Virus record (IMG/VR): IMGVR_UViG_2711768010_000002
DNA: 6,426 nucleotides
Strand: one strand, 5' to 3'
Origin: a virus
Taxonomy: Duplodnaviria > Heunggongvirae > Uroviricota > Caudoviricetes
This document shows positions 1 to 6,426 of this stretch, piece after piece. The notes under the pieces were generated by a model. The model saw only the letters and a list, made by a program, of their open reading frames with translations, was not told the origin of the DNA and made no database searches. The position numbers were made by a program, and so were the translations under genes. How positions within the stretch are numbered: the stretch's first letter is position 1; every line of letters begins with the position of its first letter.

Positions 1-1019
1 TTAATGACAGCGGTGCGGCGCTGGGATATTACGTCAGCGAGGACGGCTATCCTGGCTGGATGCCGCAGAAATGGACATGGATACCCCGTGAGTTACCCGG
101 CGGGCGCGCCTCGTTCATTCACGTTTTTGAACCCGTGGAGGACGGGCAGACCCGCGGTGCAAATGTGTTTTACAGCGTAATGGAGCAGATGAAGATGCTC
201 GACACGCTGCAGAACACGCAGCTGCAGAGCGCCATTGTGAAGGCGATGTATGCCGCCACCATTGAAAGTGAGCTGGATACGCAGTCAGCGATGGATTTTA
301 TTCTGGGCGCGAACAGTAAGGAGCAGCGGGAAAGGCTGACGGGCTGGATTGGTGAAATTGCCGCGTATTACGCCGCAGCACCGGTCCGTCTGGGAGGCGC
401 AAAAGTGCCGCACCTGATGCCGGGGGACTCACTGAACCTGCAGACGGCTCAGGACACGGATAACGGCTACTCCGTGTTTGAGCAGTCACTGTTGCGGTAT
501 ATCGCTGCCGGGCTGGGTGTCTCGTATGAGCAACTTTCCCGGAATTACGCCCAGATGAGCTACTCCACGGCACGGGCCAGTGCGAACGAGTCGTGGGCGT
601 ACTTTATGGGGCGGCGAAAATTCGTCGCATCCCGTCAGGCGAGCCAGATGTTTCTGTGCTGGCTGGAAGAGGCCATCGTTCGCCGCGTGGTGACGTTACC
701 TTCAAAAGCGCGCTTCAGTTTTCAGGAAGCCCGCAGTGCCTGGGGGAACTGCGACTGGATAGGCTCCGGTCGTATGGCCATCGATGGTCTGAAAGAAGTT
801 CAGGAAGCGGTGATGCTGATAGAAGCCGGACTGAGCACCTACGAGAAAGAGTGCGCGAAACGCGGTGACGACTATCAGGAAATTTTTGCCCAGCAGGTCC
901 GTGAAACGATGGAGCGCCGCGCAGCTGGTCTTAAACCGCCCGCCTGGGCGGCTGCGGCATTTGAATCCGGGCTGCGACAATCAACAGAGGAGGAGAAGAG
1001 TGACAGCAGAGCTGCGTAA
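1..1019 (+). CDS. B: Portal protein, C-terminal ~339 codons (5' partial; gene begins upstream of the window)
   Basis: Frame 3 is open from the window edge (no stop between nt 3 and the ATG at 60) to TAA at 1017-1019. The translation (...MPQKWTWIPRELPGGRASFIHVFEPVEDGQTRGANVFYSVMEQMKML...) matches my recollection of the lambda gpB C-terminal region. The ATG at 60 used by the ORF track is an internal Met, not the true start. Confidence 0.93.
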   Translation, partial: NDSGAALGYYVSEDGYPGWMPQKWTWIPRELPGGRASFIHVFEPVEDGQTRGANVFYSVMEQMKMLDTLQNTQLQSAIVKAMYAATIESELDTQSAMDFILGANSKEQRERLTGWIGEIAAYYAAAPVRLGGAKVPHLMPGDSLNLQTAQDTDNGYSVFEQSLLRYIAAGLGVSYEQLSRNYAQMSYSTARASANESWAYFMGRRKFVASRQASQMFLCWLEEAIVRRVVTLPSKARFSFQEARSAWGNCDWIGSGRMAIDGLKEVQEAVMLIEAGLSTYEKECAKRGDDYQEIFAQQVRETMERRAAGLKPPAWAAAAFESGLRQSTEEEKSDSRAA

Positions 1020-2319
1020 TCTCCCGCATATTGCCAGCATGGCCTTTAATGAGCCGCTGATGCTTGAACCCGCCTATGCGCGGGTTTTCTTTTGTGCGCT
1101 TGCAGGCCAGCTTGGGATCAGCTGCCTGACGGATGCAGTATCCGGCGACAGCCTGACTGCCGGAGAGGCACCCGCGGCGCTGGCGTTATCCGGTGATGAT
1201 GACGGACCACGACAGGCCCGCAGTTATCAGGTAATGAACGGCATCGCCGTGCTGCCGGTGTCCGGCACGCTGGTCAGCCGGACGCGGGCGCTGCAGCCGT
1301 ACTCGGGGATGACCGGTTACAACGGCATTATCGCCCGTCTGCAACAGGCTGCCAGCGACCCGATGGTGGACGGCATTCTGCTCGATATGGACACACCGGG
1401 CGGAATGGTGGCGGGAGCATTTGACTGCGCTGACATCATCGCCCGTGTGCGTGACATAAAGCCGGTATGGGCGCTGGCCAATGACATGAACTGCAGCGCA
1501 GGTCAGCTGCTTGCCAGTGCCGCCTCCCGGCGTCTGGTCACGCAGACCGCCCGGACAGGCTCCATCGGCGTCATGATGGCTCACAGTAATTACGGCGCTG
1601 CACTGGAGAAACAGGGCGTGGAAATCACGCTGATTTACAGCGGCAGCCATAAGGTGGATGGCAACCCCTACAGCCATCTACCGGATGACGTCCGGGAAAC
1701 ACTGCAGTCCCGGATGGATGCAACCCGCCGGATGTTTGCACAGAAGGTGTCGGCATATACCGGCCTGTCCGTGCAGGCTGTGCTGGATACCGAGGCTGCA
1801 GTGTACAGCGGTCAGGAGGCCATTGATGCCGGACTGGCTGATGAACTTGTTAACAGTACCGATGCGATCACCGTCATGCGTGATGCACTGGATGCACGTA
1901 AATCCCGTCTCTCAGGAGGGCGAATGACCAAAGAGACTCAATCAACAACTGTTTCAGCCACTGCTTCGCAGGCTGACGTTACTGGCGTGGTGCAAGCGAC
2001 GGAGGGCGAGAACGCCAGCGCGGCGCAGCCGGACGTGAACGCGCAGATCACCGCAGCGGTTGCGGCAGAAAACAGTCGCATTATGGGGATCCTCAACTGT
2101 GAGGAGGCTCACGGACGCGAAGAACAGGCACGCGTGCTGGCCGAAACCCCCGGTATGACCGTGGAAACGGCCCGCCGTATTCTGGCCGCAGCACCACAGA
2201 GTGCACAGACGCGCAGTGACACTGCGCTGGATCGTCTGATGCAGGGGGCACCGGCACCGCTGGCTGCAGGTAACCCGGCATCTGATGCCGTTAACGATTT
2301 GCTGAACACACCAGTGTAA
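1000..2319 (+). CDS. C: Prohead (capsid maturation) protease C, ClpP/SppA-like serine protease; 439 codons
   Basis: GTG start at 1000-1002 preceded by GAGGAGGAG (987-995); translation VTAELRNLPHIASMAFNEPLMLEPAYARVFF... to TAA at 2317-2319. Length 1320 nt equals lambda gene C. The upstream ATG at 865 in the ORF track gives an Arg-rich N-terminus lying inside the portal gene in another frame and lacks an SD, so it is rejected as the start. Confidence 0.92.
   Translation: MTAELRNLPHIASMAFNEPLMLEPAYARVFFCALAGQLGISCLTDAVSGDSLTAGEAPAALALSGDDDGPRQARSYQVMNGIAVLPVSGTLVSRTRALQPYSGMTGYNGIIARLQQAASDPMVDGILLDMDTPGGMVAGAFDCADIIARVRDIKPVWALANDMNCSAGQLLASAASRRLVTQTARTGSIGVMMAHSNYGAALEKQGVEITLIYSGSHKVDGNPYSHLPDDVRETLQSRMDATRRMFAQKVSAYTGLSVQAVLDTEAAVYSGQEAIDAGLADELVNSTDAITVMRDALDARKSRLSGGRMTKETQSTTVSATASQADVTGVVQATEGENASAAQPDVNAQITAAVAAENSRIMGILNCEEAHGREEQARVLAETPGMTVETARRILAAAPQSAQTRSDTALDRLMQGAPAPLAAGNPASDAVNDLLNTPV
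1924..2319 (+). CDS. Nu3: Capsid scaffolding protein Nu3, translated from an internal in-frame start within C (shares the C-terminus of C)
   Basis: In-frame ATG at 1924-1926 preceded by a strong SD AGGAGG (1914-1919, 4-nt spacer); product MTKETQSTTVSATASQADVTGVV...NDLLNTPV, 131 aa, Ala/Gln-rich, consistent with a scaffold. Start is ambiguous: other in-frame ATGs at 1714 (MDATRR..., no obvious SD) and 1876 exist; some lambda annotations may use the 1714-equivalent start. Confidence 0.72.
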   Translation: MTKETQSTTVSATASQADVTGVVQATEGENASAAQPDVNAQITAAVAAENSRIMGILNCEEAHGREEQARVLAETPGMTVETARRILAAAPQSAQTRSDTALDRLMQGAPAPLAAGNPASDAVNDLLNTPV

Positions 2320-2328
2320 GGGATGTTT

Positions 2329-2502
2329 ATGACGAGCAAAGAAACCTTTACCCATTACCAGCCGCTGGGCAACAGTGACCCGGCTCATACCGCAACCGCG
2401 CCCGGCGGATTGAGTGCGAAAGCGCCTGCAATGACCCCGCTGATGCTGGACACCTCCACCCGTAAGCTGGTTGCGTGGGATGGCACCACCGACGGTGCTG
2501 CC
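2329..2502 (+). CDS. D: Head decoration protein D, N-terminal 58 codons (3' end lost in N run)
   Basis: ATG at 2329 with AAGGGA 5 nt upstream; translation [58 protein letters not shown] matches lambda gpD N-terminus. ATG at 2323 (MFMTSK) is an alternative 2 codons upstream. Runs into N run at 2503. Confidence 0.9.
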
Positions 2503-2575
2503 NNNNNNNNNNNNNNNNNNNNNNNNNNNNNNNNNNNNNNNNNNNNNNNNNNNNNNNNNNNNNNNNNNNNNNNNN
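2503..2575. other. Run of 73 N (masked or gap sequence) covering the 3' half of D, the D-E spacer and the first ~11 codons of E
   Basis: Literal n characters. By my count the lambda-equivalent segment would be about 245 nt, so the N-run length does not represent true length. Confidence 0.99.
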
Positions 2576-3416
2576 CGGCAAATGAGCAGAAATTTAAGTT
2601 TGATCCGCTGTTTCTGCGTCTCTTTTTCCGTGAGAGCTATCCCTTCACCACGGAGAAAGTCTATCTCTCACAAATTCCGGGACTGGTAAACATGGCGCTG
2701 TACGTTTCGCCGATTGTTTCCGGTGAGGTTATCCGTTCCCGTGGCGGCTCCACCTCTGAATTTACGCCGGGATATGTCAAACCCAAGCATGAGGTGAATC
2801 CGCAGATGACCCTGCGTCGCCTGCCGGATGAAGATCCGCAGAATCTGGCGGACCCGGCTTACCGCCGCCGTCGCATCATCATGCAGAACATGCGTGACGA
2901 AGAGCTGGCCATTGCTCAGGTCGAAGAGATGCAGGCAGTTTCTGCCGTGCTCAAGGGCAAATACACCATGACCGGTGAAGCCTTCGATCCGGTTGAGGTG
3001 GATATGGGCCGCAGTGCGGCGAACAACATCACGCAGTCCGGCGGTACGGAGTGGAGCAAGCGTGACAAGTCCACGTATGACCCGACCGACGATATCGAAG
3101 CCTACGCGCTGAACGCCAGCGGTGTGGTGAATATCATCGTGTTTGACCCGAAAGGCTGGGCGCTGTTCCGTTCCTTCAAAGCCGTCAAGGAGAAGCTGGA
3201 TACCCGTCGCGGCTCTCATTCCGAGCTGGAGACAGCGGTAAAAGACCTGGGCAAAGCGGTGTCCTATAAGGGAATGTATGGCGATGTGGCCATCGTCGTG
3301 TATTCCGGACAGTACGTGGAAAACGGCGTCAAAAAGAACTTCCTGCCGGACAACACGATGGTGCTGGGGAACACTCAGGCTCGCGGTCTGCGCACCTATG
3401 GCTGCATTCAGGATGC
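2576..3416 (+). CDS. E: Major capsid protein E (HK97-fold family), internal fragment; both ends lost in N runs
   Basis: Translation from 2578: ANEQKFKFDPLFLRLFFRESYPFTTEKVYLSQIPGLVNMALYVSPIVSGEVIRSRGG...GLRTYGCIQDA matches lambda gpE from about residue 12 to about residue 291 of 341. Bounded by N runs at 2503-2575 and 3417-3682. Confidence 0.93.
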
Positions 3417-3682
3417 NNNNNNNNNNNNNNNNNNNNNNNNNNNNNNNNNNNNNNNNNNNNNNNNNNNNNNNNNNNNNNNNNNNNNNNNNNNNNNNNNNNN
3501 NNNNNNNNNNNNNNNNNNNNNNNNNNNNNNNNNNNNNNNNNNNNNNNNNNNNNNNNNNNNNNNNNNNNNNNNNNNNNNNNNNNNNNNNNNNNNNNNNNNN
3601 NNNNNNNNNNNNNNNNNNNNNNNNNNNNNNNNNNNNNNNNNNNNNNNNNNNNNNNNNNNNNNNNNNNNNNNNNNNNNNNNNN
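3417..3682. other. Run of 266 N covering the last ~50 codons of E, the E-FI spacer and the first ~15 codons of FI
   Basis: Literal n characters. Lambda-equivalent segment about 240 nt by my count; the flanking frames differ (E frame 1, FI frame 2). Confidence 0.99.
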
Positions 3683-4036
3683 CAATTGAACCGCGATGTC
3701 AGTTTGACGGGAACGAAAGAAGAACTGGCGCTTCGTGTGGCAGAGCTGGAAGAAGAGCTTGATGACACGGATGAAACTGCCGGTCAGGACACCCCTCTCA
3801 GCCGGGAAAATGTGCTGACCGGGCATGAAAATGAGGTGGTATCAGCGCAGCCGGATACCGTGATTCAGGATACGGCTGAACTGGTCACGGTCGTGGCACT
3901 GGTGACGCTGCATACTGATGCACTTCACGCCACGCGGGATAAACCTGTGGCATTTGTGCTGCCGGGAACGGCGTTTCGTGTCTCTGCCGGTGTGGCAGCC
4001 GAAATGACAGAGCGCGGCCTGGCCAGAATGCAATAA
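3683..4036 (+). CDS. FI: DNA packaging / head assembly protein FI, C-terminal 117 codons (5' end lost in N run)
   Basis: Frame 2 after the N run: QLNRDVSLTGTKEELALRVAELEEELDDTDETAGQDTPLSRENVLTGHENE...AAEMTERGLARMQ, stop TAA 4034-4036; matches lambda gpFI from about residue 16. This is a different frame from E, so the 2323-3762 ORF in the track is a gap artefact. Confidence 0.9.
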   Translation, partial: QLNRDVSLTGTKEELALRVAELEEELDDTDETAGQDTPLSRENVLTGHENEVVSAQPDTVIQDTAELVTVVALVTLHTDALHATRDKPVAFVLPGTAFRVSAGVAAEMTERGLARMQ

Positions 4037-4047
4037 CGGGAGGCGCT

Positions 4048-4401
4048 GTGGCTGATTTCGATAACCTGTTCGATGCTGCCATTGCCCGCGCCGATGAAAC
4101 GATACGCGGGTACATGGGAACGTCAGCCACCATGACATCCGGTGAGCAGTCAGGTGCGGTGATACGTGGTGTTTTTGATGACCCTGAAAATATCAGCTAT
4201 GCCGGACAGGGCGTGCGCGTTGAAGGCTCCAGCCCGTCCCTGTTTGTCCGGACTGATGAGGTGCGGCAGCTGCGGCGTGGAGACACGCTGACCATCGGTG
4301 AGGAAAATTTCTGGGTAGATCGGGTTTCGCCGGATGATGGCGGAAGTTGTCATCTCTGGCTTGGACGGGGCGTACCGCCTGCCGTTAACCGTCGCCGCTG
4401 A
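4048..4401 (+). CDS. FII: Head-tail joining (head completion) protein FII, 117 codons
   Basis: GTG start at 4048 with SD GGGAGG (4038-4043); MADFDNLFDAAIARADETIRGYMGTSATMTSGEQSGAVIRGVFDDPENISYAGQGVRVEG... to TGA 4399-4401. Length 354 nt equals lambda FII. Confidence 0.93.
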   Translation: MADFDNLFDAAIARADETIRGYMGTSATMTSGEQSGAVIRGVFDDPENISYAGQGVRVEGSSPSLFVRTDEVRQLRRGDTLTIGEENFWVDRVSPDDGGSCHLWLGRGVPPAVNRRR

Positions 4402-4412
4402 AAGGGGGATGT

Positions 4413-4775
4413 ATGGCCATAAAAGGTCTTGAGCAGGCCGTTGAAAACCTCAGCCGTATCAGCAAAACGGCGGTGCCCGGTGCCGCCGCAATGGCCATTA
4501 ACCGCGTTGCTTCATCCGCGATATCGCAGTCTGCGTCACAGGTTGCCCGTGAGACAAAGGTACGCCGGAAACTGGTAAAGGAAAGGGCCAGGCTGAAAAG
4601 GGCCACGGTCAAAAATCCGCAGGCCAGAATCAAAGTTAACCGGGGGGATTTGCCCGTAATCAAGCTGGGTAATGCGCGGGTTGTCCTGTCCCGCCGCAGG
4701 CGTCATAAAAAGGGGCAGCGTTCATCCCTGAAAGGTGGCGGCAGCGTGCTTGTGGTGGGTAACCGTCGTATTCCC
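4413..4775 (+). CDS. Z: Tail completion protein Z, N-terminal 121 codons (3' end lost in N run)
   Basis: ATG at 4413 with G-rich SD AAGGGGG (4402-4408); MAIKGLEQAVENLSRISKTAVPGAAAMAINRVASSAISQSASQVARETKVRRKLVKERARL...VVGNRRIP matches lambda gpZ. Runs into N run at 4776. Confidence 0.9.
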
Positions 4776-4871
4776 NNNNNNNNNNNNNNNNNNNNNNNNN
4801 NNNNNNNNNNNNNNNNNNNNNNNNNNNNNNNNNNNNNNNNNNNNNNNNNNNNNNNNNNNNNNNNNNNNNNN
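4776..4871. other. Run of 96 N covering the 3' ~71 codons of Z and the first ~12 codons of U (including the Z/U junction)
   Basis: Literal n characters. Lambda-equivalent segment about 248 nt by my count; the 96-nt run happens to keep phase, so the track fuses Z and U into one 272-aa ORF. Confidence 0.99.
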
Positions 4872-5231
4872 GCACTGGAGAAGCATGACACCGGGGCGAC
4901 GCTTTTTGATGGTCGCCCCGCTGTTTTTGATGAGGAAGATTTTCCGGCAATTGCCGTTTATCTCACCGGCGCTGAATACACGGGCGAAGAGCTGGACAGC
5001 GATACCTGGCAGGCGGAGCTGCATATTGAAGTTTTCCTGCCTGCTCAGGTGCCGGATTCAGAGCTGGATTCGTGGATGGAGTCCCGGATTTATCCTGTGA
5101 TGAGCGATATCCCGGCACTGTCAGATTTGATCACCAGTATGGTGGCCAGCGGCTATGACTACCGGCGCGACGATGATGCGGGCCTGTGGAGTTCAGCCGA
5201 TCTGACTTATGTCATTATCTATGAAATGTGA
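4872..5231 (+). CDS. U: Tail tube terminator protein U, C-terminal 119 codons (5' end lost in N run)
   Basis: After the N run in the same phase: [119 protein letters not shown], stop TGA 5229-5231; matches lambda gpU from about residue 13 of 131. Confidence 0.9.
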
Positions 5232-5238
5232 GGACGCT

Positions 5239-5979
5239 ATGCCTGTACCAAATCCTACAATGCCGGTGAAAGGTGCCGGGACCACCCTGTGGGTTTATAA
5301 GGGGAGCGGTGACCCTTATGCGAACCCGCTTTCAGACGTTGACTGGTCGCGTCTGGCAAAAGTTAAAGACCTGACGCCCGGCGAACTGACCGCTGAGTCC
5401 TATGACGACAGCTATCTCGATGATGAAGATGCAGACTGGACTGCGACCGGGCAGGGGCAGAAATCTGCCGGAGATACCAGCTTCACGCTGGCGTGGATGC
5501 CCGGAGAGCAGGGGCAGCAGGCGCTGCTGGCGTGGTTTAATGAAGGTGATACCCGTGCCTATAAAATCCGCTTCCCGAACGGCACGGTCGATGTGTTCCG
5601 TGGCTGGGTCAGCAGTATCGGTAAGGCGGTGACGGCGAAGGAGGTGATTACCCGCACGGTGAAGGTCACCAATGTGGGACGTCCGTCGATGGCAGAAGAT
5701 CGCAGCACGGTGACGGCGACGACCGGCATGACGGTGACACCCGCCAGTGCTTCCGTAGTGAAAGGGCAGAGCACCACGCTGACCGTGGCATTCCAGCCGG
5801 ATGGCGCAACCGACAAGAGCTTCCGTGCGGTGTCTGCGGATAAAACAAAAGCCACCGTGTCGGTCAGTGGTATGACCATCACCGTGAAAGGTGTTGCTGC
5901 AGGCAAGGTCAACATTCCGGTCGTATCTGGTAATGGTGAGTTTGCTGCGGTTGCAGAAATCAACGTCACCGCCAGTTAA
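5239..5979 (+). CDS. V: Major tail tube protein V with C-terminal Ig-like (Big_2-type) domain, 246 codons
   Basis: ATG at 5239 with GAGGA (5230-5234); [45 protein letters not shown]... to TAA 5977-5979; 741 nt equals lambda V. The ORF-track start at 5209 ([10 protein letters not shown]) lies inside U in another frame and is rejected. C-terminal ~80 residues ([79 protein letters not shown]) have the Thr/Val/Ser-rich beta-strand pattern of a Big_2 Ig-like domain. Confidence 0.95.
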
Positions 5980-5994
5980 TCCGGAGAGTCAGCG

Positions 5995-6417
5995 ATGTTC
6001 CTGAAAACCGAATCATTTGAACATAACGGTGTGACCGTCACGCTTTCTGAACTGTCAGCCCTGCAGCGTATTGAGCATCTCGACCTGATGAAACGGCAGG
6101 CAGAACAGGCGGAGTCAGACAGCAACCGGAAGTTTACTGTGGAAGACGCCATCAGAACCGGCGCTTTTGTGGTTGCGATGTCCCTGTGGCATAACCATCC
6201 GAAGAAGACGCAGATGCCGTCCATGAATGAAGCCGTTAAACAGATTGAGCAGGAAGTGCTTACCACCTGGCCCACAGAGGCAATTTCTCATGCTGAAAAC
6301 GTGGTGTACCGGCTGTCCGGTATGTATGAGTTTGTGGTGAATGATGCTCCTGAACAGGCAGAGGACGCCGGGCCTGCAGAGCCTGTTTCTGCGGGAAAGT
6401 GTTCGACGGTGAGCTGA
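5995..6417 (+). CDS. G: Tail assembly chaperone G, 140 codons
   Basis: ATG at 5995 with SD GGAGAG (5983-5988); MFLKTESFEHNGVTVTLSELSALQRIEHLDLMKRQAEQAESDSNRKFTVEDAIRTGAFVVAMSLWHNHPKKTQ... to TGA 6415-6417; matches lambda gpG in sequence and length. Confidence 0.95.
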   Translation: MFLKTESFEHNGVTVTLSELSALQRIEHLDLMKRQAEQAESDSNRKFTVEDAIRTGAFVVAMSLWHNHPKKTQMPSMNEAVKQIEQEVLTTWPTEAISHAENVVYRLSGMYEFVVNDAPEQAEDAGPAEPVSAGKCSTVS

Positions 6418-6426
6418 GTTTTGCCC
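5995..6426 (+). CDS. T: G-T fusion (tail assembly protein GT) made by programmed -1 ribosomal frameshift near the end of G; 3' partial, T continues past the window
   Basis: Slippery heptamer G GGA AAG at 6393-6399 in the G frame. After a -1 slip the reading frame continues GGG AAA GTG TTC GAC GGT GAG CTG AGT TTT GCC (G K V F D G E L S F A) with no stop to the window end, matching the start of the lambda T extension as I recall it. Confidence 0.8.
6393..6399 (+). promoter_or_regulatory. Programmed -1 ribosomal frameshift slippery site (G GGA AAG) of the G/GT tail chaperone pair
   Basis: Exact X XXY YYZ-type heptamer GGGAAAG positioned 6 codons before the G stop, with the -1 frame open downstream; this is the classical lambda G-T recoding site. 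Confidence 0.85.

Follow-up and report, generated by a model that had tools for sequence, protein, structure and literature searches.

A predicted -1 ribosomal frameshift site of the lambda G/G-T tail assembly chaperone type at the 3' end of gene G in a lambda/434-like phage sequence

The closest described system is the -1 frameshift of phage lambda G/G-T (Levin, Hendrix & Casjens 1993; Xu, Hendrix & Duda 2004, 2013, 2014, as cited in PMC5009743 and PMC7618472), through which the lambda GT region yields its two products, gpG and gpGT (PMC3296357, PMC5009743). The slippery sequence is GGGAAAG, on which ~96% of ribosomes keep the zero frame (PMC3296357), with a G:GT ratio of ~30:1; phased as G_GGA_AAG, it ranks among the most shift-prone heptamers in E. 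coli (PMC5009743). Under-thiolated tRNA-Lys(UUU) leads to a higher lambda frameshift rate and a lower phage yield (PMC3296357, PMC7618472). G and G-T both bind the tape measure protein H via G, V, the tube protein, is the partner bound by the T domain, and the virion contains neither G nor G-T (PMC5009743). The literature support used here consists of Maynard 2012 and two reviews.

Two further systems bear on the comparison. E. coli dnaX (A_AAA_AAG) relies on the same A_AAG lysine slip and the same single E. coli tRNA-Lys and, like G/G-T, draws two products in a fixed ratio from one gene. In E. coli the single tRNA-Lys (mnm5s2UUU) pairs weakly with AAG, which makes A_AAG shift-prone; the dnaX shift reaches ~50% and is accompanied by an upstream Shine-Dalgarno-like element and a downstream hairpin. 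The N15/HK225/phi80 type (G_GAA_AAG) has homologous G (31-45% identity) and T proteins, the latter ~30 residues shorter, with the same junction position, the A_AAG lysine slip codon, and a tape measure gene downstream.

The window analyzed here, the whole 6,426-nt stretch from the Caudoviricetes record IMGVR_UViG_2711768010_000002, carries a lambda-type head and tail module comprising the 3' end of portal gene B followed by C/Nu3, D, E, FI, FII, Z, U, V, and G. Identity is 97-99% with phage 434, with lambda-like phages, and with prophages of most complete E. coli genomes, and the head and tail genes around G are closest to those of phage 434 and E. coli prophages. Its 3' end contains the following features:

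5239..5979, + strand: gene V, major tail tube protein (Pfam Phage_TTP_12 at 1.4e-70 plus Big_2; annotation)
5995..6417, + strand: gene G, tail assembly chaperone in the zero frame (ATG start, 140 aa, stop TGA 6415-6417)
6354..6417, + strand: G/T overlap in which the zero and -1 frames are both open (64 nt, 21 codons)
6393..6399, + strand: slippery heptamer G_GGA_AAG, predicted -1 ribosomal frameshift site (sequence, phase, lambda identity, family conservation, literature)
6399..6426, + strand: start of the T segment in the -1 frame, cut by the window edge (first codon after the predicted slip, GTG 6399-6401)

The only long + strand ORF at GGGAAAG is 5995..6417, and its product covers 125/126 profile positions of Pfam PF06894 (Phage_TAC_2) at 5e-60, shares 96.4% amino acid identity with lambda G (~5/140 residues differ), and is labelled G or tape measure chaperone in phage 434 and E. 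coli records; the earlier note's identification of this ORF as a lambda-type G is thus borne out by the profile match and the identity. Residues 161-239 of V (window 5719-5955) form a C-terminal Big_2 Ig-like domain (Pfam 1.5e-19), which is encoded in frame. Some other phages join such Ig-like domains via a frameshift of their own, which is not the case for V here. Further upstream, at window 1000-2319, Nu3 (scaffold) is nested in frame within C (protease/scaffold) and begins internally at 1714, an arrangement also annotated in phage 434; the pair is another case of two products from one frame in the window. Three N runs, at 2503-2575 (73 bases), 3417-3682 (266 bases), and 4776-4871 (96 bases), span the D/E, E/FI, and Z/U gene junctions. 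In the near-identical relative L021 the corresponding stretches are 245, 240, and 248 bases, so the lengths of the runs are not preserved, and the long ORFs that cross them, 2323..3762 and 4413..5231, are artefactual fusions.

Since (6393-5995) mod 3 = 2, GGGAAAG is phased G_GGA_AAG in ORF 5995..6417, where the zero frame reads Gly134 (GGA, 6394-6396) and Lys135 (AAG, 6397-6399), then five sense codons (CSTVS), with the TGA stop as the sixth codon. The -1 frame opens at 6354, which gives the 64-nt overlap with G, and from 6393 it reads GKVFDGELSFA without a stop up to the window edge, 27 bases past the heptamer; in relatives the G/T overlap is similarly short (roughly 12-160 nt). The locus thus has an in-phase X_XXY_YYZ heptamer near the 3' end of G, within the overlap. 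On these points the earlier note, which had placed GGGAAAG six codons before the G stop with a -1 frame open to the edge, was accurate in every detail of sequence and phase. It had also called this the sole non-standard decoding event in the window, which is reasonable, although with three stretches masked by N it is not strictly provable; the nested C/Nu3 pair represents alternative initiation, not recoding.

As a bare motif, GGGAAAG does not exceed chance: the window holds three copies on both strands against 0.79 expected, and at least three copies arose in 9/200 dinucleotide shuffles. The second + strand copy, at 328 in the portal gene, is out of slip phase. By simple estimates, the exact heptamer would fall in phase within the 21 overlapping codons with a probability of ~0.0013, and any in-phase X_XXY_YYZ with one of ~0.08. 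The significance of GGGAAAG at 6393-6399 comes from its phase, position, and homology, not from the bare motif. Other in-phase slippery heptamers (FII 4305, A_AAT_TTC; Z 4709, A_AAG_GGG; E 3330, C_AAA_AAG) were set aside as chance occurrences, as were further in-phase slippery or A_AAG sites at Z 4553/4574/4706 and C 1455, because their -1 frames end within 0-36 codons and none lies at a gene end.

Sequence past 6426 was taken from near-identical relatives, not from the source contig. The last 117 nt of the window have no exact match in species-representative genomes and are found exactly in 22 IMG/VR contigs; among complete E. coli genomes, none exceeds 98.6% identity over G. In three loci (L013, L021, and L023), 9 of the 5991 unmasked bases depart from the window, with no mismatch over 3683-6426. 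In L021 the -1 frame runs for 146 codons from the heptamer (Gly, Lys, then 144) to a stop at 9334-9336, which overlaps the ATG (9329) of an 853-aa ORF. The 144-codon segment matches Pfam PF06223 (Phage_tail_T) at 2e-14, and the 853-aa protein, with TMP_2 at 1.7e-69 and Tape_meas_lam_C at 3.7e-21, is the product of the tape measure gene H. The 146-codon frame is intact in all 24 loci that share this junction, gene order in the near-identical relatives is V-G-T-H, and H directly follows T in L021, phage 434, lambda, and the E. coli prophage. The predicted G-T fusion would comprise 135 + 144 = 279 aa, in agreement with the 839-nt joined CDS annotated in phage 434. The earlier note had expected a -1 frame of about 145 codons followed by a tape measure gene, an expectation matched by the 146 codons and the 853-aa H in relatives identical over 3683-6426; an early -1 stop or a missing tape measure gene, which it had named as counting against a functional fusion, was seen in none of the near-identical relatives read downstream.

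Comparison with lambda reveals the same heptamer G_GGA_AAG in the same phase, six codons before the G stop. The lambda genome (NC_001416) is base-for-base identical to the window, and to L021 beyond its edge, over the heptamer and no fewer than 60 nt after it, and the -1 product begins with the same 70 residues in lambda as in the window's relatives. Lambda also shares the 146-codon -1 frame, the V-G-T-H order, and a T stop that overlaps the H start by 8 nt. The two do not differ at the slip site; differences lie in ~5/140 residues of G and in neighboring genes, which are 97-99% identical. The feature is already known: a lambda/434-like E. coli prophage or phage carries here the recoding site long described for lambda G/G-T. 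Our comparison therefore agrees with the earlier note that the site, being sequence-identical to the characterized one, is not novel, and its figure of a few percent for the lambda shift corresponds to the ~4% in the literature (PMC3296357, PMC5009743, PMC7618472).

To extend the comparison beyond near-identical sequences, we collected diverged homologs from annotated phages and from bacterial contigs, the latter with one genome per species, which after removal of duplicates gave 59 distinct 97-nt junctions of Enterobacterales phages and prophages in a gap-free alignment. T identity in this sample, referred to the window's relative, ranges from 99% down to 37%, and the genera are Escherichia, Trabulsiella, Citrobacter, Enterobacter, Kluyvera, Kosakonia, Phytobacter, Proteus, Morganella, Providencia, and Edwardsiella. 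All 59 junctions have AAA at positions 4-6 of the heptamer, the sole invariant columns among the first 27, and at position 7 there are 56 with G and 3 with A. Lys is preceded in the zero frame by GAA (48), GGA (6), GCA (2), GTA (2), or AAA (1), such that the amino acid varies while the third base, heptamer position 4, is always A. This constancy of the third base despite amino acid change shows selection on the slip site itself; a slip codon A_AAR needs the invariant A, and neither reading frame needs it by itself. The zero-frame stop lies 6, 2, or 1 codons after Lys (1-2 codons in many relatives), and the -1 peptide is conserved from the slip site onward (GK.....F..LAREFGRPDWR.ML). No start codon proper to the -1 frame is conserved among the relatives, and the gpT-family segment that it encodes in L021, at 146 codons from the heptamer, falls in the range of about 115-150 codons expected for this type. 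The junction alignment argues strongly that T would be entered from G by a -1 shift at the Lys codon and would not be an independent gene.

The most common junction form is G_GAA_AAG (46/59), and the lambda form G_GGA_AAG accounts for 5/59. Rarer forms are A_GAA_AAG, G_GTA_AAG, G_GCA_AAA (which adjoins a stop), G_GGA_AAA, and A_AAA_AAG. The junctions of the wider family were read in L029, L030, L031, L032, L034, and L132-L194, mostly at ~1201-1207.

We also searched for RNA elements that might stimulate the shift. The 120 nt that begin with the heptamer fold with no more stability than shuffled sequence (z = -1.53), which counts neither for nor against a low-efficiency site. With eight relatives as input, RNAalifold predicted an inner hairpin and an outer helix that begins 7 nt past the heptamer; 93% of cells were paired, a value reached by no shuffle, and the slide control was passed. 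On 59 sequences, however, only 75% of cells were paired, with many pairs broken in 15-31 sequences, and this candidate downstream stimulator was dropped; pairs with two-sided changes were as frequent as expected from shuffles (237/500). De novo RNAalifold on the 59 sequences gave no consensus structure, and the inner hairpin is a by-product of the conserved LAREFGRPDWRAM peptide. A search for related loci among viral contigs gave only 99-100% identical ones, which are of no use for covariation. Rfam returned no relevant family, its single match being a chance snoRNA (E = 0.57). The window lacks a Shine-Dalgarno-like element upstream of the heptamer, and the relatives are inconsistent, with even a 4-mer of this kind present in just 23/59 junctions. 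The site thus lacks the marks of the dnaX-like or IS-like stimulator class, with no conserved hairpin or pseudoknot 5-9 nt past the heptamer and no such upstream element. We conclude from these alignments that the family has no RNA stimulator in common, which is consistent with a low-efficiency shift driven by the heptamer. In this respect the G/G-T site, with its reported rate (in lambda) of a few percent, is unlike dnaX.

The reading of T as an independent gene, with its own start at GTG 6399-6401 or at a downstream ATG and with an incidental heptamer, has the public annotation behind it. RefSeq lambda lists T (10115..10549) as a separate CDS from the GTG that overlaps the last heptamer base, PGAP calls a "phage tail assembly protein T" from that GTG in E. 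coli, several phage records likewise carry a separate T, and an ORF finder also begins T at GTG 6399-6401. In other records T starts 27-90 nt further down, and in loci set in the same register, with G starting at 1501 in each, the annotated starts fall at 1905, 1950, 1932, 1983, and 1992. The -1 peptide is nevertheless conserved from the slip site, upstream of all these starts. The GTG itself, which shares a base with the heptamer, is replaced by GTC, GCC, GCA, GTA, or ATA in relatives that keep the junction; the GGCCTGCAGAGCCTGTTTCTGC upstream of it, read by eye, has no visible Shine-Dalgarno at a usable distance; and the first Met of lambda T (REMGR) is Phe (REFGR) in most relatives. An independent T would also leave the invariant AAA unexplained, including its zero-frame third-codon position, and the cited literature gives gpG and gpGT, not a free T, as the lambda products; we regard it as extremely unlikely. 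Among the records examined, only that of phage 434 has a joined G-T CDS (839 nt, 279 aa), and the warning in the earlier note that a pipeline ignoring the shift will miscall T describes most public records, where T stands as a separate gene. The correct products would be G at 5995..6417 and a joined G-T CDS, 5995..6399 / 6399 onward, with base 6399 read twice. The practical value of the site lies in annotation; the biology adds little.

A G-T fusion could also arise at the level of transcription, if RNA polymerase were to add or drop a base in the A run. Such slippage yields two-frame products in some phage and bacterial genes (PMC5009743). One relative, Stx2_14040, has a longer run, AAAAAAG. 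The run at the present site, however, is just three A's, and RNA polymerase slips efficiently only on runs of some 7-9 or more. What is conserved is the codon-phased A_AAG/A_AAA, not the run length, and the response of the lambda rate to tRNA-Lys modification is a translational signature (PMC3296357), which leaves slippage by the polymerase with a negligible likelihood. As the window ends at 6426, the site might instead be a relic in a decayed prophage, with T or H disrupted further on and no functional G-T made. Such decay does occur: L160 (Shigella flexneri CP182557.1) holds a lambda-like G-T junction from a decayed prophage, with GGGAAAG kept at ~1150-1240 but the G frame and the T frame each interrupted by a nearby stop, and a pseudogene lies further along the tail module of the closest complete E. 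coli prophage. On the other side, every intact gene that can be seen in the window has its full length and is 97-99% identical to its counterpart in viable phages (434, lambda), the 146-codon frame is kept in 24/24 loci with the same junction, and four loci identical over the last 1.5 kb carry T, and H too where they are long enough; a relic here is highly unlikely.

We propose that 6393-6399 is almost certainly a programmed -1 ribosomal frameshift site of a lambda-type tail assembly chaperone pair, as judged from sequence. Read directly from the DNA and its relatives are the phase of the heptamer, the two frames, the identity and order of the genes, and the selection on A_AAR, whereas the slip rate and the roles in assembly are carried over from lambda on the grounds of identity. 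Most ribosomes would stay in frame and stop at 6415-6417, giving the 140-aa gpG. When GGA (Gly134) occupies the P site and AAG (Lys135) the A site, their decoders, tRNA-Gly and tRNA-Lys(mnm5s2UUU), would occasionally move by one base in the 5' direction and pair anew with GGG and AAA; GTG 6399-6401 would then be read next, and translation would continue in the -1 frame through T, yielding a 279-aa G-T fusion that ends where H starts. An extra RNA stimulator would seem neither needed nor evident. By identity with the lambda sequence, ~4% of ribosomes may slip. As in lambda, many gpG and few gpG-T would coat the tape measure protein H, and the T domain would recruit the tube protein V to polymerize around it. 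By analogy with lambda, for which the literature establishes both points, the G-T fusion would be made at a few percent of G and be required for tail assembly.

The junction forms also raise a question about the family as a whole. A GAA codon in the P site cannot fully re-pair after a -1 slip (GAA to GGA), which makes the G_GAA_AAG heptamer non-canonical. On a speculative and rather unlikely reading, with the P-site tRNA unable to re-pair in the non-lambda forms, single-tRNA-Lys slippage on A_AAR would be the mechanism common to the family, and the lambda/434 lineage, including the window, would have gained its two-tRNA site secondarily, a site that perhaps sets a different G:GT ratio. One could also imagine that a local hairpin of the lambda subgroup tunes the shift rate in the window. 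Neither idea changes the identity of the feature. For finding such junctions in diverged relatives, a working rule is an invariant lysine slip codon preceded by a variable P-site codon, without a conserved RNA stimulator.

Further observations concern the relatives themselves. In L021, adjacent ORFs of 184 and 224 aa at 12920-14142 share the same ~150-aa K-like (C40 peptidase) sequence, reflecting either a tandem duplication of a tail tip gene or an assembly artefact of the IMG/VR contig. G-T DNA ~99-100% identical to lambda was also found on short or ~1x-coverage contigs (L116-L130, L141, L149, and L170) of unrelated genomes, among them Neobacillus, Oceanobacillus, Kitasatospora, Shewanella, Leeuwenhoekiella, Marinifilum, Pseudoxanthomonas, and Psychrobacter, and likewise in MW057783.1, a record named "Campylobacter phage CJLB-4." These occurrences most likely represent contamination of the assemblies by lambda control DNA.
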